Source: an uncultured Candidatus Rokubacteria bacterium | GTDB lineage: Bacteria > Methylomirabilota > Methylomirabilia > Rokubacteriales > CSP1-6 | DNA length: 64,000 bases | NCBI GenBank assembly: GCA_963762145.1 | Contig: CAVXJS010000011.1 | Coordinates: 576,001-640,000, forward strand | Direction of reading: 5' to 3' | Part shown: positions 31,313 to 56,141 of the stretch, piece after piece | Position numbering within the stretch: position 1 is the first letter of the stretch | Layout: each line of letters starts with the position of its first letter | The notes under the pieces: model-generated | Told to the model about the DNA's origin: nothing | The model's input: the letters and a program-made list of their open reading frames with translations, nothing else | Database searches by the model: none | Program-made: the position numbers and the translations under genes

Positions 31313-32974
31313 ATGACCGAAAAGAGACCGGCGACGGCGTCACGCGGCATGGTGGTCACCAATCACCCGCTCGGCTCGGCGGCGGGAGCGGAGATGCTCG
31401 CGGCGGGCGGCAACGCGGTGGACGCGGCCATCGGCGCGCTCTTCGCGCTCACCGTGGTGGAGCCGATGATGGTGGGCATCTTCGGCGCGGGCATGACCCA
31501 CCTGCGGCTGGCCGACGGCCGGCACCTCGTCATCGACAACTACACGACGGCGCCGGCCGCCTCGCGGCCCGACATGTTCAAGCCGGTCTCGGACACCTGG
31601 CCCGACTACCTGCGCGCCGAGGGCGACGTGAACCTGGTCGGCCTGCTCTCGGTGGGCGTGCCCGGCACGCTGAAGGCCTGGACGGAGGCGGTGGCGCGCT
31701 TCGGGCGCCTCGACCTCGAGACCGTGATGCAGCCCGCGATCCGCCACGCCGAGCGCGGCTTCCGCGCCACCCCGTACCTGGTGGCGGCGGTGACGGAGAC
31801 CGCGCCCGAGCTCGCGCGCTTCCCCGAGACCGCGCGGACCTTCCTGCCCGGAGGTGCCCCCATCAAGGCGGGCGACCTGATCGTGATGCCGGAGTATGCG
31901 GCCACGCTGCGGCTGATCGCGGCCAAGGGGGCCGGCGTGCTCTACGGCGGCGACCTCGGCGCAACGGTGGCGGACTACATGCGCCAGGACGGCGGCATCA
32001 TCACGCTGGACGACCTGGCGGGCTACGCCACGATCGAGCGGCAGCCGATTCGCGGCCGCTACCGTGGCTTCGAGATCACGGGCCCTCCGCCGCCGACTGC
32101 GGGCGGGCTGCACCTGGTCGAGATGCTGAACATCCTCGAGGGCTTCGACCCGCGCGGCCTGGGCTTCGGCACCGCGGACTACTTCCACCTGATGGCCGAG
32201 GTGCTCAAGATCGGCTTCGCGGACCGGAACGCGTGCACTGGAGATCCGGCCTTCGTGGACATTCCCGTCGAGCGCCTGCTCTCGAAGGAGCACGCGGCGG
32301 CGCGGCGCGCGCAGATCCGCCCGGACCGGGCGGGGGACTACGCAGTGGGTGTCACGGCGGATGTGGGGGCCGGCTCCGCGCACACCACCCACGTCACGAC
32401 CGCCGACGCGGACGGCAACGTGGTCGCGATGACCCAGACCATCAACAACCTGTTCGGCTCGAAGGCCACGGTGCCCGGCACCGGCATGCTGCTCAACAAC
32501 ACGATGGCCCTCTTCGACCCGCACCCCGGGACGCCCGCCTCCGTCGCGCCGGGCAAGCGGGTGACCAGCAGCATGGCGCCCACGATCGTGCTGCGCGACG
32601 GCAAGCCCGCATGGGCCCTCGGGCTGCCCGGCGGCGTGCGCATCTTCACCTCGGTGTTCCAGGCGGTGGTCAACCTGATCGACCACCGCATGAGCCTTCA
32701 AGAAGCGGTGGAGGCCCCGCGGATCTGGAGCCAGGGCCAGGAGCTCGAGATGGAGCAGGATATTCCGGTGGCCGTCCGGGCCGCGGTCGCCGCGCGCGGC
32801 CACGACGTGGTGGCGGTCGGGGGCGTGGCGGGCGGGATGAACGCGGTGGCCTTCGCGGCCGACGGCGCGCTCGAGGGCGCGGCCTGCTGGCGCGCCGACG
32901 GCACGCCGATCGGCGTGAGCGGCGGGCTCGCCCGGCCGGGGAGCCGGTTCCGGCCGGACGTGAAGCGGCGCTAG
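31313..32974 (+). CDS. ggt: Gamma-glutamyltransferase
   Basis: GGNAVDAA, VGVPG, HTTHVT nucleophile, FGS, PGKRVTSSMAP, GLPGG. Confidence 0.92.
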   Translation: MTEKRPATASRGMVVTNHPLGSAAGAEMLAAGGNAVDAAIGALFALTVVEPMMVGIFGAGMTHLRLADGRHLVIDNYTTAPAASRPDMFKPVSDTWPDYLRAEGDVNLVGLLSVGVPGTLKAWTEAVARFGRLDLETVMQPAIRHAERGFRATPYLVAAVTETAPELARFPETARTFLPGGAPIKAGDLIVMPEYAATLRLIAAKGAGVLYGGDLGATVADYMRQDGGIITLDDLAGYATIERQPIRGRYRGFEITGPPPPTAGGLHLVEMLNILEGFDPRGLGFGTADYFHLMAEVLKIGFADRNACTGDPAFVDIPVERLLSKEHAAARRAQIRPDRAGDYAVGVTADVGAGSAHTTHVTTADADGNVVAMTQTINNLFGSKATVPGTGMLLNNTMALFDPHPGTPASVAPGKRVTSSMAPTIVLRDGKPAWALGLPGGVRIFTSVFQAVVNLIDHRMSLQEAVEAPRIWSQGQELEMEQDIPVAVRAAVAARGHDVVAVGGVAGGMNAVAFAADGALEGAACWRADGTPIGVSGGLARPGSRFRPDVKRR

Positions 32975-33725
32975 CCCTTCGCGCCCGCCGCCGCGCGGTC
33001 GATCAGGTCCTTCGCGCCGGCCTGGATCCACGGGAAGAAGCTGGTCATGATGCAGCGCACGCCCTTGCGCGTGTAGCTCTCCACGTTGGCCGAGCTGACC
33101 AGCGTGCCCGCGGTGCGCCCCGCCTGCACGATCTTGGCGATCGCGCCGTCCACCGTCTTCTGGACCTCCGGATGCGTCATGTTGCCGATGTGGCCCATCG
33201 ACGTCGCCAGGTCGTTGGGGGCGACGAAGAAAACGTCGATGTGGTCCACGGTCAGGATCGCGTCGAGGTTGTTGACGGCCACGATGTCCTCGATCAGGAC
33301 GATGAGCAGGCTCTGGTCGTTGGCGGTCTTCAGGTAGTCGCCCACCCCGAAGCCCTGGCGGCTCGTGAACATGCCGCGCTTGCCGAGCGGGGCGAACTTG
33401 GCGCCCTCCACCACCGCCTGGGCCTCCGCACGGGTGTTGACGTGCGGCACGACGATTCCTTGCGCTCCCCGGTCGAGCGTCCGGTAGATGGTGGCGTAGT
33501 CGTTGTCCATCACGCGCACCACGCTGGTCACGTCCCAGAGATCGCAGGCCCGGGTGAGGTTGCCCAGGTCGGCGTAGTCCACCCCGCCGTGCTCGCCCTC
33601 GAGCCAGATGCCGTCGGCGCCGAGCGGGCCGAGCTGGTCGATCAGGTCCGGATCGTTGGTGCCCGACAGGATGGTCGCCACCTGTCCCGCGGCCAGACGC
33701 TGCTTCACCTTGTTCGCTCGGATGC

Positions 33726-33729
<4 letters not shown>
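32971..33729 (-). CDS. HpcH/HpaI aldolase family
   Basis: LEGEHG, LDRGAQGIVVPHV, FAPLGKRG, LIE, FVAPNDL. Confidence 0.88.
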
Positions 33730-37381
<3,652 letters not shown>

Positions 37382-40784: not shown

Positions 40785-41606
40785 ATGCCGACCACGTCCC
40801 GGCCGATCTCCCTCGCGCACCTCACCGTGCTGGACGCGACGCCTCCCGAGCTGATCACGGTGGCGGCGGCCGCGGGGTTCCGGACGGTCGGCATCCGCCT
40901 GACCGCGACGCCGAGCGTGGGCGTGCCGCCGTACGACGTGCTCCACGAGGGGCCGATGCTGCGGGAGACCCTGCTGCGCCTGAAGGATACCGGCGTCTCC
41001 GTGCTCGACACCGAGTTCCTCCGCTTCGAGCCCGAGCACCCGATCGGCATCCCGGAGGGCTTCCTCGAGGTCTCGGCGCGGCTGGGCGCCAAGCACGTGC
41101 TCGTCATGAGCGCCGAGCCGGAGGAGGCGCGCACGCTCGAGCGCTTCGGCGAGCTCTGCGACCGGGCCGCCCAGTACGGCCTGTCCGTCGGCCTGGAGTT
41201 CGCGGTCTACACGGGGGTCCGTACGCTCGCCCACGCCGCGCAGGTGGTGGCCCAGTCGAAGCGGGCGAACGTCTCGGTGGTGGTGGACGCGCTCCACTTC
41301 AGCCGGTCCGGCGGGCTGCCGGCCCACGTCGGGACGGTGGATCCGGCGCTCTTCCGCTACGCGCAGATCTGCGACGCGGCGGCGGACATGCCGGGCCCCA
41401 CCGATACGCCGAACCTGATCCGCGAGGCGCGCACCGGGCGGCTGCTTCCCGGCGAAGGCGTGTTGCCGCTTCGGGAGCTGGTGGCGGCGCTGCCCGCCGG
41501 CATCCCGCTGGCGATCGAGGCGCCGTCCCGGGCTACCGCCGATCTGCCCGCGCTCGAACGGGCCCGGCGCGCGTACCGGACGATGTCGGACCTGCTGGCT
41601 ACCTGA
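40785..41606 (+). CDS. Sugar phosphate isomerase/epimerase (TIM barrel)
   Basis: SLAHLT, LEF, DALHFSRSG, QICDA, RLLPGEG.LPL, IEAP. Confidence 0.82.
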   Translation: MPTTSRPISLAHLTVLDATPPELITVAAAAGFRTVGIRLTATPSVGVPPYDVLHEGPMLRETLLRLKDTGVSVLDTEFLRFEPEHPIGIPEGFLEVSARLGAKHVLVMSAEPEEARTLERFGELCDRAAQYGLSVGLEFAVYTGVRTLAHAAQVVAQSKRANVSVVVDALHFSRSGGLPAHVGTVDPALFRYAQICDAAADMPGPTDTPNLIREARTGRLLPGEGVLPLRELVAALPAGIPLAIEAPSRATADLPALERARRAYRTMSDLLAT

Positions 41607-41609
41607 CCG

Positions 41610-42543
41610 CTAGCCGACCTCGACCAGCTCGAGCGCCTCGCGGCTCGGGCCCTCGATCATCACCGCGCGCGTGTCGCCGAGCGCGTAGGGCTCCTCGAGG
41701 AACCGCACGCCCTCGCCGCGCAGCTTGGCGACCCACGCGTCGAGATCGGTGACGCTGAGCGCGATGTGGTCGTAGAGCTGCCCGCGCGTGCTCGCGAGCG
41801 GCCGGTCGCCCTGGCGCATGTACCAGGGCAAGGCCACGTCGCCGAACACGACGGCGGCCGACGGCGTGCGGAACATCCCCTCGCGGTCCAGCGCCGGCCA
41901 GCTCCGGTCGGGCCCGCGCGGCACCGTGCAGGTGGACTCGGTCAGCGGCGCGCGGCTGGTGCGCCCGGCGTAGATCGGCGCGTTGAGGTGCGTCTGGTAC
42001 CAGAGCTGCGCGCAGAACGGGTCGTCCTGGTAGAGATGCACGTGGTTGAAGCGCTCGGCCGGGTGATTGCCGGCGTATTCCACCAGGGCGTCGTCGGGGC
42101 CCCGCATGTAGCCGAAGCCGCCGGTGCGGGTCGGCTGCACGCCGGTGGCCCGGGCCTCGGCGATCTGCGCCTTCGTCAGGCCGGGCGTGCGGTCCCTTGC
42201 TCGGCCACGTATCGCTGCTGACGAGGACGGAGCCGCCTTCGTCGGTCCCCGGTGTAGAGCGGCAGGAGCTCGACATCCGGCCGGGCCTGGTAGACCGCGA
42301 GGCTGGCCCGCGTGTCCGGCACGTGCCAGCCGAAGTGCCAGATCGCGGTCTGCGGGGACGTCGCGGGCGGCGTCGCGACGCGGGTGAAGAGGATCAGCAC
42401 GTTGTTCGGCGCCGCGAGCGCGGGTCAGGCCGCCCCAGCGCGTCTTCGTGGAGGTCGGGAACGTGCCGGACGTAGAACTCGATCGCCGCGTCGGGGTCGA
42501 CCGAGTTCAGGTGGAGATGATGGAAGCCCGGCGCGGGGAGCAT
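41610..42543 (-). CDS. Tandem VOC/glyoxalase-like protein (frameshifted)
   Basis: FHHLHLNSVDPDAAIEFY, IWHFGW, FNHVHL, YDHIALSV.DLD, EGPSREALELVE. Confidence 0.72.
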
Positions 42544-42544
42544 C

Positions 42545-43174
42545 TCAGCGCGCCTCTCCCGCCGCCTCGGCCCTGGCCTGCTTCACGAGCTGCTCCAGGA
42601 CCTCGTAGGGCTGCGCGCCCACCACGCCGCGGTGGCCCGCGACGAAGGTCGGCACGCCGGTGATGCCGTACTGGCGCGAGAGCGCCCAGTCCCGGTCCAC
42701 CGCGTCCTTGAACGTCCGCTTCTCCAGCACCTCGCGGGCGCCGGCGACCGGCAGGCCCACCTCCGCCACGATCTCGAGGAGCACCGCGGGCTCGGAGATG
42801 TTGCGCGCCTGCACGAAGTAGGCGCGGAACATCGCGTCGTGGAACGCGTCGCCCCCCGGCTGGGTGTCGGCCCACTTGCCGAGCTCCTGGGCCAGGCGGC
42901 TGTTGTAGGTCATCGTGCGCTCGCCATAGGGGAGGCCCTCGGCGTCCATGCGCGCCTTCATCTGCGCGTGCATGGCCTTGCGGTCCACGTTGCGGCCGCG
43001 GAACAGATCCTCGAGCGACTGGCCTTCCGGCGGCGTCTCCGGGTGCAGCGGGAAGTGCACCCACTCGATCGTGACGTCGTGCTCGGTCCGGAGCTTCTCA
43101 ATACGCACGGTACTGAGATAGCACCAGGGTCAGACGTAGTCGGAGAAGACCTGAACCGTGATGGGCGTGGTCAT
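42545..43174 (-). CDS. DsbA/FrnE-family thioredoxin-fold selenoprotein (Sec at codon 15, TGA 43132-43130)
   Basis: ATG at 43174 overlaps the upstream stop (ATGA) with an AAGGAGG RBS; MTTPITVQVFSDYV-TGA-PWCY in frame with ORF 42545-43108 (FPLHP, ITGVPTF, GAQPYE). Confidence 0.87.
43096..43118 (-). promoter_or_regulatory. Putative bacterial SECIS hairpin
   Basis: UCUCAGUAC-CGUGC-GUAUUGAGA 9-bp stem (one GU pair) beginning after an 11-nt spacer following the UGA. Confidence 0.72.
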
Positions 43175-44136
43175 GTGGCCTCCTTGATGAGCTTCTGCAG
43201 GCTTCGCAGGCCGGGCGGGATCGGCTGGCCCTTGTAGCGATTGCCCCAGTTAGTGTACGACACCTCGCCGACGTAGATGTCCCCGCGCGAATCCACCGCG
43301 AGGCCGTGCGGGGAGACGAACTGGCCCGGCTCGAGGCCGGCCAGGCGGTCGCCGAGGCGCGCCAGCCGCTCGCCGCGGTGGCTGTAGATGCTGACCCGCG
43401 GCCCGATGTTGGGGACGTCGTAGTTGACGGGCAGCGCGCCGCCGATCTCCCCCACGTAGAAGCGGCCCTGGCCGCCGCGCTCCATGAAGAGGCCGGAGGG
43501 GCGGTGCATGTCGTGCCACTGCGTCTCGAAGCGGCCGTCGCCGTCGAAGACCTGGATGCGATGGTTCTCGCGGTCGGCCACGTAGACCCAGCCGTCGGCG
43601 TCGCAGCAGATGTTGTGGGGGATGTTGAACTGGCCGGGATCGGTGCCCGGCTCGCCCCACGAGCGGAGCAGGGTGCCGTCCGGCGCGAACTTGTGGATGC
43701 GCGCGTTGCCGTAGCCGTCGGAGACGTAGAGATCGCCCTGCGGGGACAGCGCGGTGTGCGTGCAGCGATGGAACGGCTCGCCGCTCATGTAGGGCTTGGG
43801 CGTGCCGGGGATGCCGATGGTCAGGAGCACCTTGCCGTCGAGCGTGCAGTGGCGGACGGTGTGATCGCCGTCGTCGGTCAGCCAGAGCGTGTCGTCGGGC
43901 GCCACGTGGACGCCGTGCGCGCGGTGGAAGACCCCCTCGCCCCAGGAGCGCAGGAAGTTGCCCTCGCGGTCGAGGACGACCATCGGGTGCGCGCCGCGGT
44001 TGAACGCGTAGACCCGGTCCTGCCGATCCACCCCGACCGCGGCCACGTCGGCGTTGAACTCCCGGCCGGGCGGCAGCTTCGCCCAGTCGCCCACCACCCG
44101 GTAGCGGTAGGCGCCGCTCCCCAGGATGGCCGCCAT
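43171..44136 (-). CDS. NHL-repeat protein, peptidyl-alpha-hydroxyglycine alpha-amidating lyase-like
   Basis: SDGYGNARIHKF, WGEPG..PGQFNIPH, ADRENHRIQVFD, SPHGLAVDSRGD. Confidence 0.87.
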   Translation of the reverse strand: MAAILGSGAYRYRVVGDWAKLPPGREFNADVAAVGVDRQDRVYAFNRGAHPMVVLDREGNFLRSWGEGVFHRAHGVHVAPDDTLWLTDDGDHTVRHCTLDGKVLLTIGIPGTPKPYMSGEPFHRCTHTALSPQGDLYVSDGYGNARIHKFAPDGTLLRSWGEPGTDPGQFNIPHNICCDADGWVYVADRENHRIQVFDGDGRFETQWHDMHRPSGLFMERGGQGRFYVGEIGGALPVNYDVPNIGPRVSIYSHRGERLARLGDRLAGLEPGQFVSPHGLAVDSRGDIYVGEVSYTNWGNRYKGQPIPPGLRSLQKLIKEAT

Positions 44137-45092
44137 CACGCGCCTCCCGGCCCGCGCGCCTCGAAGATCGCGCGCGGGTTGCCGACCAGCATCTGCTGGA
44201 TCTGCGCCTCGGTGACCCCCGCCTGGCGGAGCGCGGGCAGGATGTCGTCGGGGATGTGGTTGTAGTTCCACCGGGGCCGCGTCCGCCGCTTGTCGTCCTC
44301 GGAGAGCATGTCGCTCCAGCAGTTGGCGTCGTGCGAGAGGACCATGCGCTCCGCGTAGCCCTCCGCGCACAGGCGGGCGATGACCTCGACCCGCTTCGGC
44401 GTCGGCAGGAAGTGCTCGAGGCCGAAGCGGTCCATGCCGATGGTGCTGCCGCGGTCCATCAGTCCGCGGAGGTAGCCCAGGTCCTCGCTGTCGCCGCTGT
44501 GGCCGATGATGACCCGGCGGAGGTCCACGCCCTCCTGGGCGAAGATCGCCTGCTGCGCCTCCCCGGTCCGGCCCGCGGCCCAGGTGTGGGTCGAGATCGG
44601 CACCCCGGTCGCCTTCTGGGCCCGCGCGGAGGCGCGCAGGATGTTCTCGATGACCGGGGTCACCCCCGCGGTGTCGGTCGCGCACTTGATGATGGCGGCC
44701 TTGACGCCGCTGTCCCCGATGCCCTGCGTGATGTCGCGGACGAAGAGGTCGGCGACCGCGTCCACCCCGTGGCCGCTGAAGTACCGCTGCGGCATCCACC
44801 AGACGCCGGTGGCCACGATCACGTGGACGCGGGAGCGGCGGGCCACGTCGAGGATCAGGCCGATGTCGCGTCCCAGGTCCACGGTGGTCAGGTCCACGAT
44901 CGTGCGGATGCCGCGCGCGTGGAGATCGGCCATCTTCCGCTCCGCCATCGCGAGGATGCCGGCGCGGTCCCAGAGGTGCGGCCAGTTCTCCTGGACGCCG
45001 GGCGAGCGGGTGACGATGTGCTCGTGCATCAGCGTGGCGCCGAGCTCGGCGGTGGCCAGCGGACCGAGGGCCGTCTCTACCGTGGTGGTCAT
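44136..45092 (-). CDS. Phosphotriesterase-related protein
   Basis: TLMHEH, DLGRD, IIKCA, ISTH, IIGH, DRFG, LSHD. Confidence 0.9.
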   Translation of the reverse strand: MTTTVETALGPLATAELGATLMHEHIVTRSPGVQENWPHLWDRAGILAMAERKMADLHARGIRTIVDLTTVDLGRDIGLILDVARRSRVHVIVATGVWWMPQRYFSGHGVDAVADLFVRDITQGIGDSGVKAAIIKCATDTAGVTPVIENILRASARAQKATGVPISTHTWAAGRTGEAQQAIFAQEGVDLRRVIIGHSGDSEDLGYLRGLMDRGSTIGMDRFGLEHFLPTPKRVEVIARLCAEGYAERMVLSHDANCWSDMLSEDDKRRTRPRWNYNHIPDDILPALRQAGVTEAQIQQMLVGNPRAIFEARGPGGA

Positions 45093-45106
45093 TCCGGATC
45101 TCCTAT

Positions 45107-46276
45107 CTATCCCGCGACCGCGCGCACGAAGCGCTCGACCTCGGCTTCGTCGTTGTAGTAGTGGACGCTCGCGCGGACGAGCGCGTCGAACCCGCGCGCG
45201 GGCAGGTCGAGCCGCGAGGAGCGGGCCTGGGTGTGGGTGACGTTGATGTTCATGGCGCGGAGGCGCCGGCGGGTGGCCTCCGGGGCCTCGCCGGCCTTGA
45301 GAAAGGTGACGATCCCGCACTGCTCGACACCCAGGTCGTGGACGGTCACGCCGGGCAGTCTCGCGAGGTCCCGCCGGAGCCGGGCGGCGAGCCCCTTCAC
45401 GCGGACCTCGATCGGCTCGATGCCGAGCGCCAGGGCGTAGCGCACCGCGACGCCGAGGCCGATCTGGCCGGCCACGAAGCGCTCCCAGTTCTCGAAGCGC
45501 CGGGCGTCGTCGCGGAGCGTGTAGGTGTCGGCGTCGATCCACGCGGCGGCCTCCAGATCGATGAAGGGCGGCTCCAGCCCGCCGATGGTGTCGCGCCGCA
45601 CGTAGAGGAAGCCGGTGCCGCGCGGGCCGCGCAGGTACTTGCGCCCGGTCGCGGAGAGCATGTGGCAGCCGATGCGGCGCACGTCCACCGCGAGCTGGCC
45701 GACCGACTGGCAGGCGTCGAGCAGATACAGGATGCCGTGCCGCGCCGCGATCCGGCCGACCTCGGCGGCCGGGTTCACGAGCCCGCCCTGGGTGGGCACG
45801 TGGGTGATCGCGACGAGCCGGGTGCGCGGGCGGATCGCGCGCTCGAGGGCGGCCACGTCGAGCTGGCCCGAGGCGTCGTCGTCGACCACGTCGATCTCCA
45901 CGCCCGCGCGCCGCTTCATCTGGAGGAACGCGAGGTAGTTGGACGCGTACTCGGCCCGCGCGGTGATGATCCGGTCCCCGGCGCGGAAGGGGATGGCGTA
46001 GAAGGCCATGTCCCAGGCCCGCGTCGCGTTCTCCACGAACGCGATCTCGTCCGGGCCCGCGCCGATCAGCGCGGCGACCGCGTCGTAGACGTCGGCGATC
46101 CGGTCCTCGGCCTCCGCGGCCGCCTCGTAGCCGCCGATGGCCGCCTCGCGCTGGAGGTGGCCGACCACCGCGTCGAGCACCGGGCGCGGGGGCAATGCGG
46201 CGCCCGCGTTGTTGAAGTGCAGGACGTCGGCCACGCCGGGCGTGTCCGCTCGAAGACGCGGCACGTCGAGCGTCAT
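45107..46276 (-). CDS. Class V PLP enzyme (C-S lyase/EgtE-like or selenocysteine lyase-like)
   Basis: [41 protein letters not shown]; no GHHC-type catalytic Cys loop. Confidence 0.85.
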
Positions 46277-47034
46277 CGCCCGCAGACCTCGAGCACCGGG
46301 TCCGGCCCGCGCACGGCGGCCAGCACCACCGCATGGATCGCCGGCTCGCGCAGGAGGCACCGGGCCGTCTCGCGCGCCGGGGTCCGGTCCGGGAGCGTGT
46401 CGACCTTGTTGATCAGGACGACGACCCGGGCGCCGGCCGGCACGCCCTTGCGCCCTCCGTCCGGATGGGCCAGGACGCGGGCCACGATCGCGGGCGTGAT
46501 CGGCGTCCCCAGCGACGCTCCCGAGAGCGCGCTGACGAGCTCCGGACGGTGCACGTGCTCGGCGTCCAGGGGAGCGCCGAAGACGTCCGCGCCGACCACG
46601 GGAACGACCAGCGTCGTGGCCGCCGGGATGACCGGCTCGTACCCGGCGGGGGCCTTGAAGGGACGCATGCGCGAGCCGTCCGCCTCGTTCAGGAGGCAGG
46701 CGTCCGGGAACCACGCGCGCAGGTGCCGGAAGAGATCGAGGGCAATGCCCTCGGCCTTGCCGCTCCCGGCCTCGGTCGGGCCGATGACGAGCACGTGCCC
46801 GTGGGCGGCCAGGGCGGCCGCGACGCGGTCCCGCGTCAGGTCGGCGGCGGGGACGTGGGCGGGGGCCAGCGCGATCTGCGCGCCGAAGATGCGGGTGGTC
46901 GTGGTGGTGATCGCGCGCCCGCCGCGGTCCACCACCTCGCGCGCCAGGCGGAACATCGCGGTGGTCTTGCCGCCACCCCCGACGAGCGCGACGCTCTCGT
47001 CCGCCGCCATCCGCAGCGCGTCCGCCAGCGTCAT
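46273..47034 (-). CDS. yqeC: Selenium cofactor biosynthesis protein YqeC
   Basis: [39 protein letters not shown]; ATGA overlaps on both sides. Confidence 0.85.
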
Positions 47035-49220
47035 CGACGCGCGCGGAAGCGGTCCAGGACGTTGCGGAGGATGCGCGAGACGTTGTTGTCGTAGCGGTTG
47101 TGCGACAGGCTGCCGCAGAAGGTGATGGAGCCCACCGCGAAGACCGCGCCCCCGCCGGGCAGCTCGGCGTAGGTCATGTCGGCGCGCAGGAGCCGGGCCG
47201 GCTTCTCCCCGGTCACCGTGGCCAGGTGCGAGAGCAGCTCCTCGGGCACCACGATGAAGCTCGGGCCGTGTCCCTCGGAGCTGGCCACCACGATGGCGCC
47301 CGCGGGCGTGCCGAGCGCGGGGTCGGCGCGGTCGAGCTCGAAGCCGGCCGCTCCGCCGCCCGAGAGGCCGAAGTCGCCGATGACCTCGTCGGTGACGCCG
47401 TCCAGGATCCAGGCCGCCCTCGGATCGTCCGCCCCGGGCTGGCGGCGATAGTACGAGCCCTCGAAGAGGCCCTGGCCCGAGAAGCCCACCGTCGCGATCC
47501 GCTGCGGCGGGCGCCCGTTGCGGCGCCAGAGGCCGCCGTAGGCGCCGTCGAGCGCGTGGTAGTACTCGCCGGTCTGCGCGTCCCACGCCCGGATGCCGCC
47601 CTCGGCGCGCCGCACCTCGATGACGCCGGGCACCGCGGCGCTGGTGGCGATGCGCCAGTAGAATCCGTTGCCGCCCAGGTAGACCAGCCGGCCGCCGCCG
47701 TCCAGGTAGCCCTGGTGCGCGTCGAGCGTGCGCGCGGTGTGGTACTCGGGATGCGAGCCGGTGAGCACCGCCGCGTACGGGGCGAGCAGGGCCGCGCCCT
47801 CGGCCTCCACGTCCTCGTCGGTGACGACGTCGACGCGGATGCCCTGCGCCTCGAGCCAGTCGAGCAGATGGGTGTCCGCCGAGTAGTGGCGCAGGCCCGA
47901 GCCGCGCGCGTCGAGGAAGGTGAGATAGCGGGGCCGGAAGGTCAGCACGGGGCGGAGGCGGGACGAATAGCAGATGCCGCTGCCGTCCCGGTGCCGGTTG
48001 TACGTGGACCAGCCGTAGTCCGGATGATCGTCCGGGGTGTGGGGCGCGGCGCCCCACGCGGCGACGCGCTCCCGGTACGCGGCGTTGGTGGAGCCGCGCG
48101 CGTGATTCGCGTAGGCCTGATACGTGTAGGTGGACGCGATGTAGCACACGTCCGCGCGGGGCCCGCCGCGGGGCGGCCGCACGTAGAACGGCAGGTCGTC
48201 GGCGTGGCCCTCCGCGGACAGCCGCATGAGGTAGGCGCCGCTCGGCAGGTCGTCCGGCACCGTGAACTCGAAATCGGTGGCCCAGCCCGCGTCGTGGACG
48301 TCGTCGTCGTGGAAGTGGATGGCCGCGTACTCCCGCGGGGCGTGACGCCAGCACATCTCGTGTCCCGTCCAGCGCGCGCCGGTCACCGCGCGCGTCGGGA
48401 GGTTGACGAGCCGGCCCCCGAGGCGGTGCGGGCCCACGTCGGTGACGGCGAGCCCGTCGATGCCGCGGGAGAAGTCCCAGCCCGCGACCAGCTCCGCGGG
48501 CGGGAGCAGGGGATCGAGCACCAGCGCCTCCGGCGCGCTCGCCGCCGCGGCGAGCAGCAGCGGGTCCTCGATCTTGCCGTTGTAGTGCTCGCGCGCGTCG
48601 GGCGCCAGGCGCGCGCCGATCAGCAGCGGCGCGGCGGTGTCGAGCCGGGCCGCGGGCGGCAGCGGCGCCGACGCGTCCTCCCGGCCGCCGCCGACGAGCG
48701 GCGCGTGGCCGACGCGCAGCGTGCCCGCGGCCGGGTCGGCCACCAGCCAGATGCGGTGCCAGCGCCGGAGCGGGAGCGCCCGGCCGGTGGAGACGGTGAG
48801 CGGGCCGCCACCCGGCGCGCCGACCCGCGCGGTGACGCCGCCGGGGCCGAGCGACAGGGCCCAGCCCGCGTGGCCGGTCTCGTCCCAGCGGGAGATCACG
48901 CACTGCTCGCGCGGCGCCGCGTAGGTCGGCCAGACCAGGGCGGAGACGGTGAGCGGTCCCGGCGTGCGCAGGGCCGTCGCGGCGTCGACGCGGACATAGG
49001 AGCCCTGGGCGAGCGGCTGGACGCGGGAGGGGCGCTCGATCGCGAAGCGGGCGGCGAGATCCTCGATCTTCACGCCGGGCCCGGCCGGGTTCGGATCGGC
49101 GTGGATGACCCGCGCGAGGCGGGCGCGATACGGTCCCGCCGCCGTGCTCGAGACCTTGAAGGCGATGCGCTCGCCGGGCGCGGCGGAGAGCCGGTCGCTA
49201 TAGCCGGTGAGCGGGATCAC
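47031..49220 (-). CDS. N,N-dimethylformamidase large (beta) subunit family
   Basis: GYSDRLS, LamG-like insert, [42 protein letters not shown]. Confidence 0.87.
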
Positions 49221-50568
49221 TTAGCCGAGGAACTGCTCGCACACCTCGAGCCAGGCCTGGGTGGTGAGGGCCAGGGATTCGACGTCGATGCGCTCGTCGT
49301 TGCCGTGGAAGCGGCCGGACATCGCCTCCGCGGTCAGCGTGCGCGAGAAGAGCCCGAAGCCGTAGGCCACCGCGCCCTTCTCGCGGAAGTAGGGCGCGTC
49401 GGTGAAGCCCACGATCATCTTGGGCAGGAGCTTCGCCCCCGGGTAGTGCGCGTCCACCACGCGGCCCAGCACGTGCCAGAGCGGGGTGCCGGTGGGGGAG
49501 GTGGAGGCGGGCTTGGAGAAGAGCTTCTCGACCTCGATCTCCTCGGCGAGGCCGCCCAGGGCCTTGTCGAGATGCCGGCGCACCTCGTCCTCGTTGTCGC
49601 CGGGGACGGTGCGGATGTCCACCTCGACGTCCACCGCGTCCGGGATCACGTTGGTCTTCACGCCGCCGTGGCAGACGTTCGGGGAGAACGTGGTGTGGGT
49701 GGCCGACCACGAGAGCTTGGCGAGGGCGGGCGCGAGGCCTTCGATGGCCTCGTCCACCCGCGAGGGATCGGCGAGGGCTTCCTTCACCGCGGGAGCGAGG
49801 TGCAGCGTGTCCACGAAGGCGCGCCACAGCTCGTCGACGTAGGGCGAGGGCCGGTAGTCGGCCAGGCGGCTCACCACCTGCGCGGCCTTGACCAGGGCGT
49901 TGTTCGAGCCGTAGGGCATCGAGCCGTGCCCGGGCGTGCCCTTGACGCGAAGGCGGCGCCACGCCACGCCCTTCTCGCCGACGTGCACGGTGACGTTCAG
50001 CTCGTCGCCCCGGGTTCCGCGGCTCACGGTGCCGCCGTTCTCGGTCAGGCAGTAGTCGGCCCGGAGCGCGTCCCAGTGCCGCTCGACCACGTGCCCGGCG
50101 CCGAGGGTGCCGCCGGCCTCCTCGTCGGCGCAGGCCAGGTAGACGAGCGTGCCGCGCGGCCGCCAGCCGCGGACGGCCAGGGTCTTGAGCGCGACCGCCT
50201 GCGAGGCGGTGAGGTTCAGCATGTCCACCGCGCCGCGCCCCCACACCTCGCCGTCGACGAGCTCGCCGCCGAAGGGATCGCGCGTCCAGGTCTTGGGGTT
50301 CACCGGCACCACGTCGGTGTGGCCCATCAGGCACAGCGTGGGCGCCTTGGGATCGGTGCCCTCGATGCGGGCCACGAGGCTGCCGCGGCCGGGGGCGTGC
50401 GCGGGCTCGTAGACCTCGAGGTCGAGGCCGCTGCCCTCGAAGTAGCTGCGGAGCGTGTCGCTGTTGCGGGTCTCCTGGCCGGAGAGCAGCGGTGCCGTCG
50501 TTCACGCACTGGTTGCGGATCATGTGCTGCAGCAGCTCCACCGTCTGTCCGGTCAGGGCATCGCTCAT
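49221..50568 (-). CDS. M20/M25/M40 metallo-hydrolase (frameshifted near the N-terminus)
   Basis: GHTDVVP, WGRGAVDM, ADEEAGG, TENGG, GHGSMP, GFTDA, HGNDERI. Confidence 0.88.
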
Positions 50569-50579
50569 GGATCGGTATC

Positions 50580-51419
50580 CTAGCCAGCGGGCGCGGTCTT
50601 GTCGAGGGGCCGCTCGAAGACCGCCTGGATCGAGACGAGCCGGCCCTCGTCGCGATTGCGATGGCCGACGCGGATGATCTCGTCGATGGCGTCCCCCATC
50701 ACGAGGCGCTGGATGCTGTGCGCGGGGATCGCGGCCGCGGTCGCGGGGCCTGCGGTCTCCGCGGTCACGTCGTCCCACGCGCGGAGCCGGAATCCGGCGG
50801 CCTCGATCACCGCGCGCATCTCGGCCGGCGGGCGCAGGAAGGTCGTCGAGGCATCGCGCGCCCACATCACCGGATAGAGCAGGGGCTGCACCGGGCCGGT
50901 CATCGGCTCCTGCAGCGCCAGCAGGCCGCCGGGCCGCAGCACCCGATGGAAGCCCGCGTAGAGGCGCTCCTTGTCCGCGATGTTCATGCCGCTGTTCTGC
51001 GTCCACACGAGATCGAAGGCCCCGTCGGGGAAGGGCAGGGCGAGCGCGTTGCCCACGTGGTGGCTGACGCGATCGTCGAGGCGCATCCGCGTGGTCAACG
51101 TCTGCGCGGCGCGCACGTAGGAGGCGGTCAGGTCCACGGTCGTGACGAGGCAGCCGAACTCCACCGCCAGCGTGCGGGCGGGGCCGCCGAATCCGCCGCC
51201 GACGTCGAGGACCCGCATGCCGCGCGCGGCCCCGGCGAGGCGCGCGAGGCGGTCGGTGGCGGGCTTGCCGCCGCCGTGGAACTGGTCCACCGGTGCCACC
51301 GCGTCGGGCGTGAGCGCGTCGAGGTCGGCGCCGCGCGCGGTGAGGGCGGCCAGGATGGCCTCCGCGAGGTTCTCGCGCCCCCAGTAGGCCTCGATGGTGC
51401 GCGCGTCGAATTCGGGCAT
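50580..51419 (-). CDS. Class I SAM methyltransferase (sarcosine/dimethylglycine N-methyltransferase-like)
   Basis: DQFHGGG, VLDVGGGFGGPAR, MNIADK, VLRPGG. Confidence 0.85.
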   Translation of the reverse strand: MPEFDARTIEAYWGRENLAEAILAALTARGADLDALTPDAVAPVDQFHGGGKPATDRLARLAGAARGMRVLDVGGGFGGPARTLAVEFGCLVTTVDLTASYVRAAQTLTTRMRLDDRVSHHVGNALALPFPDGAFDLVWTQNSGMNIADKERLYAGFHRVLRPGGLLALQEPMTGPVQPLLYPVMWARDASTTFLRPPAEMRAVIEAAGFRLRAWDDVTAETAGPATAAAIPAHSIQRLVMGDAIDEIIRVGHRNRDEGRLVSIQAVFERPLDKTAPAG

Positions 51420-51420
51420 T

Positions 51421-52257
51421 TCAGCCGGCGAGCGCGGCCATGCGGTCGAGGAAGGGCAGCGCGTCGTCGAGGCGGCGCGGCGCCACCAGGGTGACGCGCG
51501 TCACGCCCAGGTCCTCCAGGCGCCTCACCGCGTCGGGGGTGGGTGGCTTGAACGCGAAGACCGAGACCGAGAGGTCGTCGGGCCGGCGGCCCGCGACCCG
51601 GGCCCGCTCCTGGAGGTCGGCGATGGCGGCGGGCAGGTCGTCCAGCAGCACGTCGATCGGGATCCACCCGTCGCAGTACTCCACCACGCGCGCCCGGCCC
51701 TGAGCGGTGGCGCCGCCGAACAGGATCGGCGGATGCGGGGTCTGCACCGGCTTGGGGAAGGAGATCGCGCGGTCGAAGTTGACGAACTCCCCGTGAAACG
51801 ACGCCTCGTCCTGGGTCCAGAGGGCCTTCATGGCGAGCACGCGCTCGCGCAGCACGCGCCACCGCTTGGCGAACGGCGTGCCGTGATGCTCCATCTCCTC
51901 CCGGTTCCACCCCCCGCCGATGCCGAAGAGCACGCGGCCGCGGGAGAGCCAGTCGAGGGTGGCGACCGCCTTGGCGAGGACGATCGGGTCGTGCTCGACC
52001 ACCAGGCAGATGCCGGTGCCGAGCTTGATCGTCCGCGTCGCGGCCGCCGCCGCCATCAGGGAGACGAACGGATCGGCCATGTGATAGTACGGCTTGGGCA
52101 GCGGCTCGCCGCCCGGGTACGGCGTCTGCCGGGCGGCCGGGATGTGGGTGTGCTCGCCGACCCAGAAGGACTCGAACCCGCGGTCCTCCGCGGCGCGGGC
52201 CAGCTCGTCCGGCCGCGCGCCGTACTCCACGTTGTAGCTGAAGACGCCGAGGTGCAT
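51421..52257 (-). CDS. LLM class F420-dependent oxidoreductase
   Basis: FESFWVGEHTH, DPFVSL, GIGGGWNREEM, PKPVQ. Confidence 0.88.
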   Translation of the reverse strand: MHLGVFSYNVEYGARPDELARAAEDRGFESFWVGEHTHIPAARQTPYPGGEPLPKPYYHMADPFVSLMAAAAATRTIKLGTGICLVVEHDPIVLAKAVATLDWLSRGRVLFGIGGGWNREEMEHHGTPFAKRWRVLRERVLAMKALWTQDEASFHGEFVNFDRAISFPKPVQTPHPPILFGGATAQGRARVVEYCDGWIPIDVLLDDLPAAIADLQERARVAGRRPDDLSVSVFAFKPPTPDAVRRLEDLGVTRVTLVAPRRLDDALPFLDRMAALAG

Positions 52258-52276
52258 CGCGGGCGCCGGGCCGCGC

Positions 52277-53287
52277 CTACCTGCCCCGGCGCGCGCGCCC
52301 GGGCGCGTAGACCTCGGGGTTGACCACGTTGATCGGGCGCTCCCGGAGCAGCACGCGGGCGATCTCCTCGCCGCAGCGCTTCGGCACCTGGGCCACCGCG
52401 GGAGAGGAGAAGTAGGCCGCGTGCGGCGTGAGGATCACGTTGTCCATGCGGCGCAACGGGCTGTCGGCCGCGAGCGGCTCCTCCTCGAAGACGTCGAGCG
52501 CCGCGCCGGCCAGCTGCCCCGCCTGCAGCGCGCGGACCAGGGCGCGCTCGTCGACCACCGGACCGCGGGAGGTATTGACGAGACAGGCGGTCGGCTTCAT
52601 GCGCTTGAAGAAGGCGTCGTTGATCAGGCCGCGCGTCTCCGCGTTCAGCAGCGCGTGGACCGAGACGTAGTCCGCCCGCGCGGCCAGCGTGAGCAGGTCC
52701 ACCCGCTCGACGCCGAGGGCGGCGAAGCGGGCGTCGTCCACGTGGGGGTCGCAGGCGATGACGTGCGTCTCGAGCGCGGCGATCCGGCGGGCGAAGGCGC
52801 TGCCGATGTTGCCGAGCCCGACGATGCCCACCGTCTCGCCGTGGAGCGAGCCGGTGACCGCCCCCGGGACCCGCGAGCTCCACGTGCCGGCGTGCACCTC
52901 GCGGTCGAGCGTGACGATCTTGCGGTTCCAGGCCAGCAGCAGGGCGAGCGCGTGGTTGGCCACCTCGCGGATCCAGACGTCGGGCACGTTGATCACCACC
53001 ACGCCCAGCTCCGTCGCGGCCGGCACGTCGATGACGTCGTAGCCCACGCCGGTACGCATCACCGCCTTGACGCCCTCGAGCGACTCCATCACGCGACGGG
53101 TGACCGGCGACGAGGAGATGATGAGCGCGTCGGCGTCGCGGGTGCGGGCGATCACCTCGTCGGCGTCGCCGATGAAGGGCAGCGAGACCAGCTGGGCGGG
53201 CACGCGGTCGAGCGCGGTCTGGCAGTCGGCGTAGTCGCGCTCGCCGCGGCCCTGGATGACGTACACCTTGAACGGTCGGTCGGGCAC
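52277..53287 (-). CDS. D-2-hydroxyacid dehydrogenase (CtBP-like)
   Basis: GVGYDVID, NVPD, GLGNIG, NTSRG, LDVFEEEP, TPHAA. Confidence 0.88.
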   Translation of the reverse strand: MPDRPFKVYVIQGRGERDYADCQTALDRVPAQLVSLPFIGDADEVIARTRDADALIISSSPVTRRVMESLEGVKAVMRTGVGYDVIDVPAATELGVVVINVPDVWIREVANHALALLLAWNRKIVTLDREVHAGTWSSRVPGAVTGSLHGETVGIVGLGNIGSAFARRIAALETHVIACDPHVDDARFAALGVERVDLLTLAARADYVSVHALLNAETRGLINDAFFKRMKPTACLVNTSRGPVVDERALVRALQAGQLAGAALDVFEEEPLAADSPLRRMDNVILTPHAAYFSSPAVAQVPKRCGEEIARVLLRERPINVVNPEVYAPGRARRGR

Positions 53288-53325
53288 TGGTCTCTCCGTC
53301 GGAATGGGATGTGGGTCAGAATCGG

Positions 53326-54087
53326 TCAGAATTGGCCGTGGCGGCCGGCGCCCGTCGCGAAGCGTTCCGCGCCCGCCTGGCTCTCGCCGGTGTCGTGGGT
53401 GGCCTTGCCCAGCCGGAACTCGTTGGCCATGGCCGCGGGCAGGGGCAGGCCCGCGCTCTCCCATGCGGAGCGCCGGTCGCTGCGCACGCAGTGCGGGGGG
53501 AAGGCCGCGATGTCCCGGGCCAGCGCCTCCGCCGCCTCGCGGGCCCGGCCGGCCGGGACCACGCGGTTGGCCAGCCCGAAGCCGAGCGCCTCCCGCGCAT
53601 CCACCGGGCGGCCGGTCAGGATCAAGTCGAGCGCGCGCGACAGGCCGATCAGCTGGGGTAGCCTGACCGTTCCGCCGTCGATCAGCGGCACGCCCCAGCG
53701 GCGGCAGAAGACCCCGAAGATCGCGGTGTCGCCGGCCACGCGCAGGTCGCACATCAGCGAGAGCTCGAGCCCGCCCGCCACCGCGTGGCCCTCCACCGCG
53801 GCGATCGTCGGCTTGGTGAACGCCATCCGCGTGGGGCCCATGGGCCCGGGGCCGTCGGCGGCCAGGCGCAGGCCGCGCCCGGTCCCCCGGGCCTTGAGGT
53901 CCGCCCCCGCGCAGAACGTGCCGCCCGCGCCCCAGAGCACGGCGACCCGCAGGGTCTCGTCCCGCTCGAACTCCTCGAAGGCCTCGATCAGGGCCCGCGC
54001 CGCGGGCCCGTCCACCGCGTTCCGGGCCTCGGGGCGGTCCATGACGATCGTCGCCACCATGTCGCTTCGCTCGATTCGAATGGCCAT
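53326..54087 (-). CDS. Enoyl-CoA hydratase/crotonase
   Basis: FCAGADL, AVAGGLEL, RRWGVPLIDGGT. Confidence 0.9.
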   Translation of the reverse strand: MAIRIERSDMVATIVMDRPEARNAVDGPAARALIEAFEEFERDETLRVAVLWGAGGTFCAGADLKARGTGRGLRLAADGPGPMGPTRMAFTKPTIAAVEGHAVAGGLELSLMCDLRVAGDTAIFGVFCRRWGVPLIDGGTVRLPQLIGLSRALDLILTGRPVDAREALGFGLANRVVPAGRAREAAEALARDIAAFPPHCVRSDRRSAWESAGLPLPAAMANEFRLGKATHDTGESQAGAERFATGAGRHGQF

Positions 54088-54226
54088 CGGGTCTCTCCTC
54101 GTGCCGGTCGCGGCCCCGGAAGAATCTATCACCTTTCGCCGGGGGGCCTTTCACACCGGAGCCCGGCCGGGGTCACACGAGCAGAAGCGAGACCCCACCA
54201 CCCGGCCCACCAAGAGGGAGGACACG

Positions 54227-54676
54227 ATGAGCGAGAAGGCGACGATGCTGCGGGATGCGGACCTGGCGTTCGGGGAGCTGCGTGCAGCGATCGAGGGGTT
54301 GAGCGACGAGGACATGCGCCGGGTCTGGCTCGGGACCTGGGGCGTGCGCGAGATCCTGATCCACATCACGGGCTGGCACGACGAGATGGCGGTCGCGCTC
54401 GGCCGGGTCGCGAAAGGGGATGCGCCGTATCCGAAGGGGACGTACGATGACTTCGATGCGTGGAACGCGCGCTTCGTGGAGCAGAAGGCAGGCGTGAAGA
54501 CCGCCGACGTGGTGGCCGACGTGGAGGCCTCCCACCGCAAGCTGGTGGCCGCGGCCGCCGCGCTGCCGGAGACCCTCTTCGCCGCCGACGGCGCCGCGCG
54601 GGGCCCGTTCGACGGAGCCGGCGCCGGGCACTACCGCGAGCACACGGAGCAGATCCGTCAATGGCGACAGGGCTAG
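54227..54676 (+). CDS. ClbS/DfsB (DinB-like) four-helix bundle protein
   Basis: WGVREILIHITGW, DAWNARF, HYREH; GGAGG RBS. Confidence 0.75.
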   Translation: MSEKATMLRDADLAFGELRAAIEGLSDEDMRRVWLGTWGVREILIHITGWHDEMAVALGRVAKGDAPYPKGTYDDFDAWNARFVEQKAGVKTADVVADVEASHRKLVAAAAALPETLFAADGAARGPFDGAGAGHYREHTEQIRQWRQG

Positions 54677-55241
54677 GGACCGGCTTCACCCTCTTCGACA
54701 CCGCGATCGGCGCGTGCGGCATCGCGTGGAACGCCCGCGGAATCGTGGGCGTGCAGCTTCCCGAGCCGAGCCCATCGGAGACACGGGCGCGGCTCGGCGC
54801 CGGTTCCCGGAGGCGCGCGAAGCGCTCCCACCGGGGCCGGTCCGGGAGGCCATCGAGGGTGTCGTGGCCCTGCTGCGGGGTGAGCCGTGCGCGCTCGATA
54901 CGGTGACCCTCGACATGGACGGCGTCCCGCCGTTTCACCGGCGGGTGTACGAGGTCGCGCGCACGATCCCGCCCGGCACGACGGTGTCCTACGGCGAGGT
55001 CGCGGCGCGCCTGGGCGAGCCCGGCGCCGCGCGCGACGTGGGCCAGGCGCTCGGCCAGAACCCGTTCGCGATCATCGTGCCGTGCCATCGCGTGCTCGCC
55101 GCCAACGGCAAGGTCGGAGGCTTCTCCGCGCGGGGCGGGGTCCGGACCAAGCTCCGGCTGATCTCGAGCGAGCGGGCGGGAGGGCACGGCGCGTTGCCTC
55201 TCTTCCGCGGCGTCCCGGAGAACCCGCCGCCGTCGCGCTAG
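54661..55241 (+). CDS. ogt: Methylated-DNA-protein-cysteine S-methyltransferase (frameshift near 54797)
   Basis: FDTAIG.CGIAW, SYGEVA, VGQALGQNP, IVPCHRV. Confidence 0.85.
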
Positions 55242-55265
55242 GACCCATCGTGCTAGACTCCCGCC

Positions 55266-56135
55266 GTGCACATCGGCGTGGTCTTTCCGCAGGTCGAGAT
55301 CGGCGCGGATCCGGGCGCGATCCGTGACTACGCGCAGGCGGTCGAGGCGATGGGCTACACGCACATCCTCACCTTCGACCACGTGCTCGGGGCGAACCCG
55401 GAGCGGCCCGGTGGCTGGAAGGGCCCGTACACGTACCGTCATGCGTTCCACGAGCCGTTCGTGCTGTTCGGCTTCCTGGCCGCGGCCACCCGCCGCGTGG
55501 AGCTGGTCACCGGGATCCTGATCCTGCCCCAGCGCCAGACCGCGCTCGTGGCGAAGCAGGCCGCCGCGGTGGACGTGCTCTCGGCCGGGCGGCTGCGCCT
55601 CGGGGTCGGGGTCGGCTGGAACGCGGTCGAGTTCGAGGCCCTCGGCGAGCGTTTCACGAATCGGGGCGCGCGCATCGAGGAGCAGATCGCGGTGCTGCGC
55701 GCGCTCTGGGCCCGCGACCTCGTGACGATCGAGGGCCAGTGGCACCGGGTCACCGACGCGGGCCTCAACCCCTTGCCGCCGCGGCCCACGATCCCGATCT
55801 GGATGGGCGGCGAGAGCGAGCCCGTCGTGCGTCGCGCGGCGCGCCTGGCGGACGGGTGGATGCCCCACTTCCGCCCGGGACCCCCGGCGCAGGCCATCGT
55901 GGATCGGCTGCACGGCCTGATCCGGGAGGCCGGGCGCGACCCGGCGGCCTTCGGCATCGAGGGGCGCATGACGCTGGCGCAGGTGCCGGCCGACGAGCGT
56001 CAGGCCGAGCTGGCGGCATGGCGCGGGATGCGAGGAATCACGCATCTTTCCGTCCACACGGTGGGACTGGGCTTGAAGACGCCGGCGGAGCACGTGCAGG
56101 CGCTCGAACGCTTCAAGAAGGACCTCCTGACCTAG
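55266..56135 (+). CDS. LLM class F420-dependent oxidoreductase
   Basis: FDHVLG, HEPFVLFG, ILPQRQT, GVGVGWN. Confidence 0.88.
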   Translation: MHIGVVFPQVEIGADPGAIRDYAQAVEAMGYTHILTFDHVLGANPERPGGWKGPYTYRHAFHEPFVLFGFLAAATRRVELVTGILILPQRQTALVAKQAAAVDVLSAGRLRLGVGVGWNAVEFEALGERFTNRGARIEEQIAVLRALWARDLVTIEGQWHRVTDAGLNPLPPRPTIPIWMGGESEPVVRRAARLADGWMPHFRPGPPAQAIVDRLHGLIREAGRDPAAFGIEGRMTLAQVPADERQAELAAWRGMRGITHLSVHTVGLGLKTPAEHVQALERFKKDLLT

Positions 56136-56141
56136 GCTCCG

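Follow-up and report, generated by a model that had tools for sequence, protein, structure and literature searches.

We analysed a window of 64,000 nucleotides (nt), positions 576001-640000 of contig C11 in the metagenome-assembled genome of an uncultured Candidatus Rokubacteria bacterium (6.26 Mb, 25 contigs, 72% G+C, 88% complete, 5.4% contamination). Public relatives of the window's genes carry the labels Candidatus Rokubacteria, Rokuibacteriota or Methylomirabilota. Third-position G+C profiles showed that minus-strand coding is unbroken over 41610-54087, where twelve genes lie between a plus-strand gene that ends at 41606 and another that begins at 54714. Two of the twelve touch on selenium: yqeC, and a DsbA-type gene predicted to encode selenocysteine (Sec). 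YqeC is taken to mark the selenium trait that is understood least, although no activity is known for it. A first-pass annotation of the window had suggested that the run encodes an undescribed organoselenium or organosulfur pathway, with a class V pyridoxal phosphate (PLP) enzyme as a possible selenium-liberating lyase.

Pfam and NCBIfam searches agreed with the families that had been named for the twelve co-directional genes (Table 1). The eleven intergenic spacings (38, 19, 1, 11, 0, -4, -4, 14, -1, -4 and 1 nt) also matched those that we derived from start and stop coordinates. Spacings of -4 to 38 nt, together with a scan that found no terminator-like site within the run, suggest one transcript. 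The start of yqeC overlaps the stop of the preceding acylase-like gene by 4 nt. One weak promoter-like site lies inside the run, at the end of the methyltransferase gene, and an Rfam scan of 41000-55000 (E up to 1) gave zero matches.

All twelve genes are present, but frameshifts in two of them had been overlooked. Compared with three of three relatives (L024, L029 and L132), the M20 gene has one extra nucleotide after about codon 27, and the 11-nt gap reported before it therefore joins two frames. The first 140 or so codons of the VOC gene contain four insertions (1, 1, 4 and 1 nt) that are missing from two single-frame relatives; one relative, in L028, is intact at 314 aa and reaches 43.8 bits. 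Elsewhere in the genome, at least seven adjacent fragment pairs occur among 32 MoCoBD_1 matches on several contigs, which suggests frequent indel errors in the assembly, and a second low-contig relative, L019, gave split matches in six cluster genes. Because so many genes are split in this way, assembly indels are the likelier cause of the M20 and VOC frameshifts.

Table 1. Genes and elements of the minus-strand run and two displaced genes, in window coordinates
Feature	Position	Strand	Supporting matches
Crotonase/enoyl-CoA hydratase family, first of the array	53326..54087	-	PF00378 140.8 bits; NF006108 389.9 bits (cut-off 273)
D-isomer 2-hydroxyacid dehydrogenase	52277..53287	-	PF02826 204.5 bits; PF00389 78.6 bits
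F420-type luciferase-like oxidoreductase (LLM)	51421..52257	-	TIGR03619 275.9 bits (cut-off 166.9)
SAM-dependent methyltransferase	50580..51419	-	Methyltransf_11/25
M20 metallopeptidase, frameshifted near 50486 in the assembly	49221..50568	-	PF01546 and PF07687 on the part from 50468
DMFA2_C-domain amide hydrolase (acylase-like)	47031..49220	-	PF20254 319.5 bits
yqeC, stand-alone, 253 aa	46273..47034	-	TIGR03172 177.1 bits (cut-off 73.05); PF19842 132.6 bits (cut-off 27.6)
Class V PLP enzyme	45107..46276	-	PF00266 207 bits; start overlaps yqeC stop by 4 nt
Phosphotriesterase-family (PTE, PLL-type) hydrolase	44136..45092	-	PF02126 282 bits
NHL-repeat beta-propeller	43171..44136	-	PF01436 73 bits
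FrnE-type DsbA selenoprotein, 209 aa, U-P-W-C motif	42545..43174	-	PF01323 124.8 bits, TGA read as Cys
Sec codon (TGA), first Cys position of CxxC	43130..43132	-	
SECIS-like hairpin	43088..43128	-	9-bp upper stem 43096-43118
Two-domain VOC/glyoxalase-fold gene, four frameshifting insertions in the assembly	41610..42543	-	PF00903 25.5 bits (C-terminal open reading frame)
Amidase-signature enzyme, displaced in the window	34600..36228	-	PF01425 310.6 bits; 80% identical to L017 amidase
HpcH/HpaI-type aldolase, displaced in the window	32974..33729	-	82% identical to L017 HpcH gene (PF03328 92 bits)

The selenoprotein and the selenium genes of the genome

Judged by its sequence and that of its orthologues, the DsbA gene is a genuine selenoprotein gene, as first proposed. 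Its TGA stands for the first Cys of the CxxC motif and occupies that site in 16 of 16 orthologues, which come from six genera. A predicted hairpin that resembles a selenocysteine insertion sequence (SECIS) follows it; the folding energy is -23.1 kcal/mol (z -1.97), matched by 6 of 200 shuffled sequences. The 5-nt loop begins 20 nt after the UGA and has a G at position 2, and bacterial SECIS loops carry a G among their first two bases. The 9-bp stem is identical in 15 of the 16 orthologues, with the outermost pair broken in one, and the loop differs in three; the codons that flank the stem vary freely. This support is conservation at synonymous sites rather than covariation, as no compensatory changes are available.

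The gene occurs in 81 of the 159 family genomes that we tallied, a set that includes the unpublished G135, G243 and G029 (one genome each), on which no conclusion rests. An in-frame TGA was found in all 78 family matches that span residue 15, with no Cys form among them. The closest solved structure is FrnE of Deinococcus radiodurans (PDB 5cp1, 93 bits). DsbA-like selenoproteins with a UxxC motif (PF01323/COG2761) already appear in excerpts of a publication on the Sargasso Sea (PMC1088965) and of a 2026 review (PMC13188914). Likened by its description there, form 1 of the Sargasso Sea proteins shares with ours the PF01323 domain, Sec as first residue of CxxC and a hairpin after the UGA. In contrast to that form, ours belongs to Rokubacteria, has a near-invariant SECIS and adjoins an NHL propeller gene in most relatives. 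What is documented here is a Sec-only DsbA/FrnE lineage with a near-frozen SECIS in half of a soil bacterial family.

Two further reading frames in relatives have features of selenoproteins. An AhpC/TSA-like open reading frame (ORF) in L017 (8332-8565; relative G033, another genus), immediately upstream of the NHL gene, has a signal-like N-terminus and stops at a TGA exactly at the site expected for the peroxidatic Cys; it probably encodes a second selenoprotein next to the NHL propeller. In L028 (5186-5404; relative G042, another family), an Rdx/SelW-like fragment 4.6 kb from a yqeC of the window's type lacks its N-terminus, as a Sec-containing form would.

The genome encodes tRNA-Sec, selA (577 bits) and selB (363 bits) side by side on contig C9, and two selD genes, both above cut-off. 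One selD, with an in-frame TGA, lies at C11:419505-420437, 156 kb from the window start. The second is a pyridine-nucleotide-disulfide oxidoreductase-SelD fusion on C14 (136600-141400; L130:8628-13353), which scores 393 bits against TIGR03169 (cut-off 310) and 278 bits against SelD (cut-off 125). It adjoins an XDH-family molybdenum (Mo) hydroxylase that is split into ORFs of 606 and 222 aa and reaches 293 bits against the Se_dep_XDH model (cut-off 830). ModE, TupA/B, ModB and thioredoxin reductase genes lie near the fusion. Around the selD on C11 (418000-423200; L131:8373-13195), a selenium-metabolism LysR regulator (309 bits, cut-off 250) precedes the Sec-containing SelD; an IS110 transposase gene follows, then one for a GT4 glycosyltransferase that weakly resembles SenB (90 bits, cut-off 300).

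The window holds no yqeB, selD or xdh-type gene, in agreement with the first-pass annotation, and no Mo hydroxylase, XdhC or MobA-like gene; the genome's Mo hydroxylases (at least 20) and its one XdhC all lie outside it. YqeB (TIGR03309) had no match in the genome, which is 88% complete, nor in any of 20 other genomes of the genus, and it exceeded the cut-off in six of the 159 family genomes, four of them of genus g17. The labile selenium-cofactor trait is defined by SelD, YqeB and YqeC in the part of PMC5029168 consulted; SelD was found and YqeB was not. As a candidate partner of yqeC, the oxidoreductase-SelD fusion (33 of 159 family genomes, E up to 1e-60) was rejected: the fusion is present in 15/20 genomes of g1 and 0/17 of g15, compared with 7/20 and 14/17 for yqeC.

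yqeC and its neighbours across the family

The window yqeC is the only copy in its genome and, from its model scores and motifs, is a true member of the family. The Walker A motif is G-G-G-G-K-T, with G19, G21, G22 and K23 invariant in 18 of 18 aligned sequences, and E117-A118-D119-G120-S121 is likewise invariant in all 18, the yqeB-linked type included. The structural model (pLDDT 95.5) has the fold of a SIMIBI-class P-loop nucleoside triphosphatase (NTPase), with SRP GTPase/FlhF as best match (Z 13) and MinD/ParA, UreG, HypB, CooC and BioD at Z 9-11. A PDB search with the sequence gave a chance-level match alone (E 0.038).

Window-type yqeC is 65-90% identical across genera and is found in 46 of the 159 family genomes. 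The yqeB-linked yqeC of three g17 genomes, which shares a contig with yqeB, is 36-38% identical to it; in the one annotated g17 locus, L027, a Mo hydroxylase stands beside the yqeB-yqeC pair. In a quick IQ-TREE run, drawn with midpoint rooting, the window-type sequences form one yqeB-less clade from a single Rokubacteria family (33 rows; SH-aLRT, the approximate likelihood-ratio support, 98), and the yqeB-linked g17 type, from the same bacterial family, is placed in the other half. The window clade is separate from that type. Two Anaerolineales sequences, encoded directly after Mo-hydroxylase genes, are its successive sisters, and it nests among Chloroflexota yqeC that lie beside, or are fused to, Mo-hydroxylase maturation genes. 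We infer a transfer from a Chloroflexota-like lineage, a direction that depends on the midpoint drawing.

Outside the family the gene keeps different company. A MobA-like, XdhC, Mo-hydroxylase or MoCF gene lies within 6 kb in 58 of 68 yqeC loci (MobA-like 50, of which 38 apparently fused to yqeC; Mo hydroxylase 20; XdhC 18; MoCF 8), two shadow ORFs (L061 and L063) being excluded from the Mo-hydroxylase counts. No gene of the cluster was found in any of the 68; the nearest approaches were one 26% PTE-family match 7 kb off and one 27% M20 match. The window protein resembles the YqeC of Se-dependent Mo-hydroxylase loci (Escherichia coli, Clostridia, Enterococcus) in its family model, motifs and stand-alone length of about 250 aa. 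It differs from them in that yqeB was not found in its genome or genus and in that it sits in a hydrolase cluster.

The part of PMC5029168 consulted treats yqeB and yqeC together as marking the Se-cofactor trait, and yqeC alone as no marker of it. In the excerpt of PMC11448449, deletion of yqeC in Clostridioides difficile gave no obvious phenotype. Here, a clade of at least 46 Rokubacteria genomes carries yqeC without yqeB and outside Mo-hydroxylase loci; therefore, surveys should not score yqeC alone as Se-cofactor use.

We next consider linkage, counted within 9 kb of yqeC in 35 loci of relatives with the window-type gene (13 genera, many loci cut by contig ends). The PTE gene was the most constant neighbour (23/35 loci, seven genera, in these loci within 6 kb), mostly directly downstream, followed by the NHL gene (19/35, six genera), the HpcH aldolase (18/35, seven genera), Sec-DsbA (17/35, six genera), the amidase (13/35, seven genera), the PLP gene (10/35, four genera) and the DMFA-like acylase gene (7/35, genus g1 alone). 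The usual order in other genera is amidase, HpcH, yqeC, PTE, a 326-aa ORF, NHL, F420 LLM and Sec-DsbA. NCBIfam had no match for the 326-aa and 461-aa module ORFs of other genera, nor for the intact VOC protein. In the window, the orthologues of the amidase that accompanies yqeC elsewhere and of the HpcH/HpaI aldolase just upstream of it lie downstream of the run, beyond an inserted plus-strand block. The five upstream genes of the run are genus-specific, save for M20, which was also present in two g15 loci.

The linkage that the first-pass annotation put up for testing among yqeC, the PLP enzyme, the DMFase-like gene and Sec-DsbA thus holds inside the family, around another core than the one it proposed: yqeC and Sec-DsbA stay close, and the DMFase-like and PLP genes do so in one genus and four. 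Free variation of the neighbours of yqeC, named there as the pattern that would speak against a pathway, was not seen inside the family, because yqeC and Sec-DsbA recur together in the six genera.

The cluster does not depend on yqeC. Four of four yqeC-less sister species keep it with clean junctions, the acylase gene being followed by PLP in L132 and L134, M20 by PLP in L133 and M20 by PTE in L135; yqeC is therefore optional and, on these alignments, dispensable for the cluster. L029 retains only residues 1-95 of the protein. Conversely, yqeC stands with no module gene nearby in L026, L030, L033, L035 and L055. The simplest account of these sequences would be that yqeC is under purifying selection where present, yet is not needed by the cluster.

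These data also bear on whether YqeC, once without its MobA fusion and its Mo-hydroxylase surroundings, was recruited to the module as an NTP-driven loading or maturation factor, helpful without being essential, for the PTE-type hydrolase or the PLP enzyme. Such a role would suit the constancy of PTE, a hydrolase of binuclear-metal type, as neighbour, the position of the PLP gene directly after yqeC in all ten loci that have both, the 4-nt overlaps on both sides of yqeC in the window, and the intact motifs and high identity across genera. The modelled fold is compatible with it too, since the SIMIBI class also holds the metallochaperones UreG, HypB and CooC and MeaB-type domains (Z 9-10). However, the sister species keep PTE, PLP, NHL and DsbA without yqeC, five loci have yqeC without these genes nearby, and no one neighbour is constant in all loci. 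Position can be inherited without function, and likeness of fold shows no function. We therefore regard recruitment as doubtful.

One locus places window-type yqeC at a Mo hydroxylase. In L030 (9923-13957; relative G153) it lies 20 nt upstream of a set comprising the hydroxylase large subunit, CoxG and a 2Fe-2S subunit, which comes after hydantoinase A/B and SDR genes. As a candidate for co-inheritance with yqeC this hydroxylase was rejected by hand comparison: its orthologues (at least 78% identity) are missing from the window's own genome, present in the yqeC-less G001 and G012, and on other contigs than yqeC in four g15 genomes.

The PLP enzyme

The PLP enzyme retains the PLP lysine. It scores 178 bits against sufS (cut-off 475.1), 120 against SufS NF006791 (661), 84 against SclA (525) and 159.9 against EgtE (TIGR04343, 400). 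Among solved structures, it matches C-DES with 95 bits and EgtE with 81. No Cys aligns to the H-C motif of the four best-scoring SufS-type structures; a fifth aligned structure, 7e6a, is itself without Cys at that position. The C-terminal 130 aa taken alone had no PDB match. Without the Cys that serves catalysis in desulfurases and Sec lyases, and with scores far below the SufS, SclA and EgtE cut-offs, the enzyme is not a persulfide-forming desulfurase, and its proposed role as a selenium-liberating lyase is not borne out. A C-S lyase activity or another amino-acid reaction is possible from its sequence.

PLP orthologues occur in 60 of the 159 family genomes (E up to 1e-60). Away from yqeC, in other genera, they are separated from the module by 96-118 kb or stand on different contigs, beside an SBP_bac_5 peptide-binding protein in three of six loci examined; their other neighbours are DAO, CoA-transferase III and class IV aminotransferase genes, and none carries an Egt domain. 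The genome has an EgtD gene (356 bits, cut-off 291) divergent from an EgtB-like gene (250 bits, cut-off 360) at C14:517261-519565. No gene in it passes the EgtE model, the window PLP gene being the best EgtE-like match; the odds that it is the missing EgtE appear low.

Under the organoselenium or organosulfur proposal, the hydrolases would supply a substrate from which the PLP enzyme releases Se or S, YqeC would handle labile Se and Sec-DsbA would take part. The class V PLP gene close to yqeC does recall the sclA-selD-yqeB-yqeC-xdh locus of Enterococcus faecalis, as given in the part of 10.1101/2020.02.07.939272 consulted. The Cys-less relatives C-DES and EgtE are C-S lyases, the EgtE-like PLP gene sits in a genome with EgtD and EgtB-like genes, and yqeC and Sec-DsbA co-occur. 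But unlike the E. faecalis locus as described in that part, the window locus is without selD, yqeB and xdh, and its PLP enzyme has little likeness to SclA and no active-site Cys. PLP, DMFA-like and yqeC genes each come and go in otherwise identical clusters, PLP orthologues of other genera lie far from the module among peptide-binding, DAO, CoA-transferase and aminotransferase genes, and every lyase or desulfurase model stays far under its cut-off. Furthermore, yqeB was not found in the genus, yqeC alone does not mark the Se cofactor (PMC5029168, in the part consulted), Sec-DsbA is by far the commoner gene of the two (81 against 46 of 159 genomes) and occurs in 39 genomes without yqeC, and selD lies 156 kb off and on another contig. 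Taken together, these data make such a pathway very improbable, and the caveat of the first-pass annotation that the link may be incidental fits them better.

A probable catabolic cluster with an optional yqeC

The remaining genes of the run were compared with known proteins and families. The DMFase-like protein, named for the large subunit of N,N-dimethylformamidase (DMFase) whose C-terminal domain (PF20254) it contains, matches N-acetyl-(R)-beta-phenylalanine acylase (PDB 8huy) with 802 bits, compared with 479 bits for the DMFase large subunit (6lvb), both over the full length with the DMFA2_C domain. It had no NCBIfam model match; its neighbours are M20 and yqeC. The closest PDB entry to the PTE protein is 4if2, the phosphotriesterase homology protein of Mycobacterium tuberculosis (318 bits). 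Like this protein and the phosphotriesterase-like lactonases, a group with lactonase activity, it has PF02126 across its full length; it falls below all three NCBIfam equivalogs (OPH 197.9 bits, cut-off 500) and is a member of PF02126 only. The NHL protein matches TRIM-type NHL domains in the PDB with up to 153 bits, and the PAL domain of PAM (3fvz) weakly, with 81 bits. The crotonase gene is present solely in g1 versions of the cluster. For the 2-hydroxyacid dehydrogenase every NCBIfam equivalog was under its cut-off, and the best NCBIfam scores of the methyltransferase (DVU_1556 family 71.7 bits; sarcosine/dimethylglycine N-methyltransferase 62.5 bits) are far under theirs.

We propose that the array is probably a lineage-specific amide- and lactone-hydrolase catabolic cluster that includes a selenoprotein of a known type and, facultatively, yqeC. 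It would combine a family-wide module of PTE-type hydrolase, NHL propeller and cytoplasmic FrnE-type Sec-DsbA, often with VOC, F420 LLM, amidase and HpcH aldolase genes nearby, and a genus-specific block of crotonase, 2-hydroxyacid dehydrogenase, F420 LLM, methyltransferase, M20 and N-acyl-beta-amino-acid-acylase-like enzyme. The products may break down amino-acid-derived N-acylated, amide- or lactone-bearing compounds, with Sec-DsbA as a putative thiol/selenol redox helper. yqeC would be an optional rider derived from a Chloroflexota-like lineage that has the gene next to, or fused with, Mo-hydroxylase maturation genes. Its product is most likely a dispensable accessory NTPase, which might serve the many Mo hydroxylases of the genome in trans. 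On this evidence, yqeC here most likely indicates neither a labile-Se cofactor nor an organoselenium pathway, and the cluster is otherwise an ordinary, variable catabolic gene set.

Several observations weigh against this proposal. Sec-DsbA is present in 42 of 46 genomes with window-type yqeC, compared with 39 of 113 without it; this hand comparison ignores kinship and is an association, not a test, as related genomes are not independent. In 22 of the 42 genomes that have both genes, the two share a contig and are no more than 14 kb apart. yqeC holds its place between HpcH and PTE (or PLP) in seven genera, and its 4-nt overlaps with the stop and start codons of its neighbours would also fit a role inside the module. 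A Mo-hydroxylase ORF was near yqeC in two of the 35 loci, among the 11 loci with unassigned ORFs that were scanned with Pfam, and orthologues of the sole yqeC-adjacent hydroxylase do not track yqeC. Moreover, the substrate class was guessed from the names of the families, none of the genes having passed the cut-off of an equivalog whose substrate is defined, and co-transcription of the run is a prediction.

The run may alternatively have no common pathway, being twelve unrelated co-directional enzymes of a kind common in large gene-dense soil genomes, with linkage as shared descent. The gain and loss of DMFA, PLP, yqeC, LLM and VOC genes between species, the genus-specific upstream genes (M20 in two g15 loci apart), the inserts of 1-6 kb that split the module in several genera and the total lack of genes with a substrate defined by an equivalog cut-off all fit this. 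Set against it, PTE, NHL and Sec-DsbA, with amidase and HpcH, stay together in six to seven genera through rearrangements at 65-90% protein identity, and the tight spacings without a terminator-like site suggest one transcript. We consider it unlikely. Decidedly unlikely as well, in our judgement, is co-option in soil Rokubacteria of the YqeC clade, freed of YqeB and Mo hydroxylases, as an NTP-driven helper of the PTE/NHL/Sec-DsbA module, perhaps passing S or Se released by the PLP enzyme to a partner; if true, this would be the first function of the orphan YqeC family outside Mo-cofactor biology.

Around the cluster, the plus-strand genes at 54714-57327 encode an O6-methylguanine-DNA methyltransferase domain protein, a second LLM, a methyltransferase and an HbpS-like protein, and those on the minus strand at 57395-59601 a P450 and a metallo-beta-lactamase-fold protein. 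The cluster is without an adjoining regulator, and a histidine kinase gene lies at 38193-39227. Part of the stretch is contained in 20 sequencing runs; in the best of them, a soil metagenome, 0.54 of the words sampled were present.

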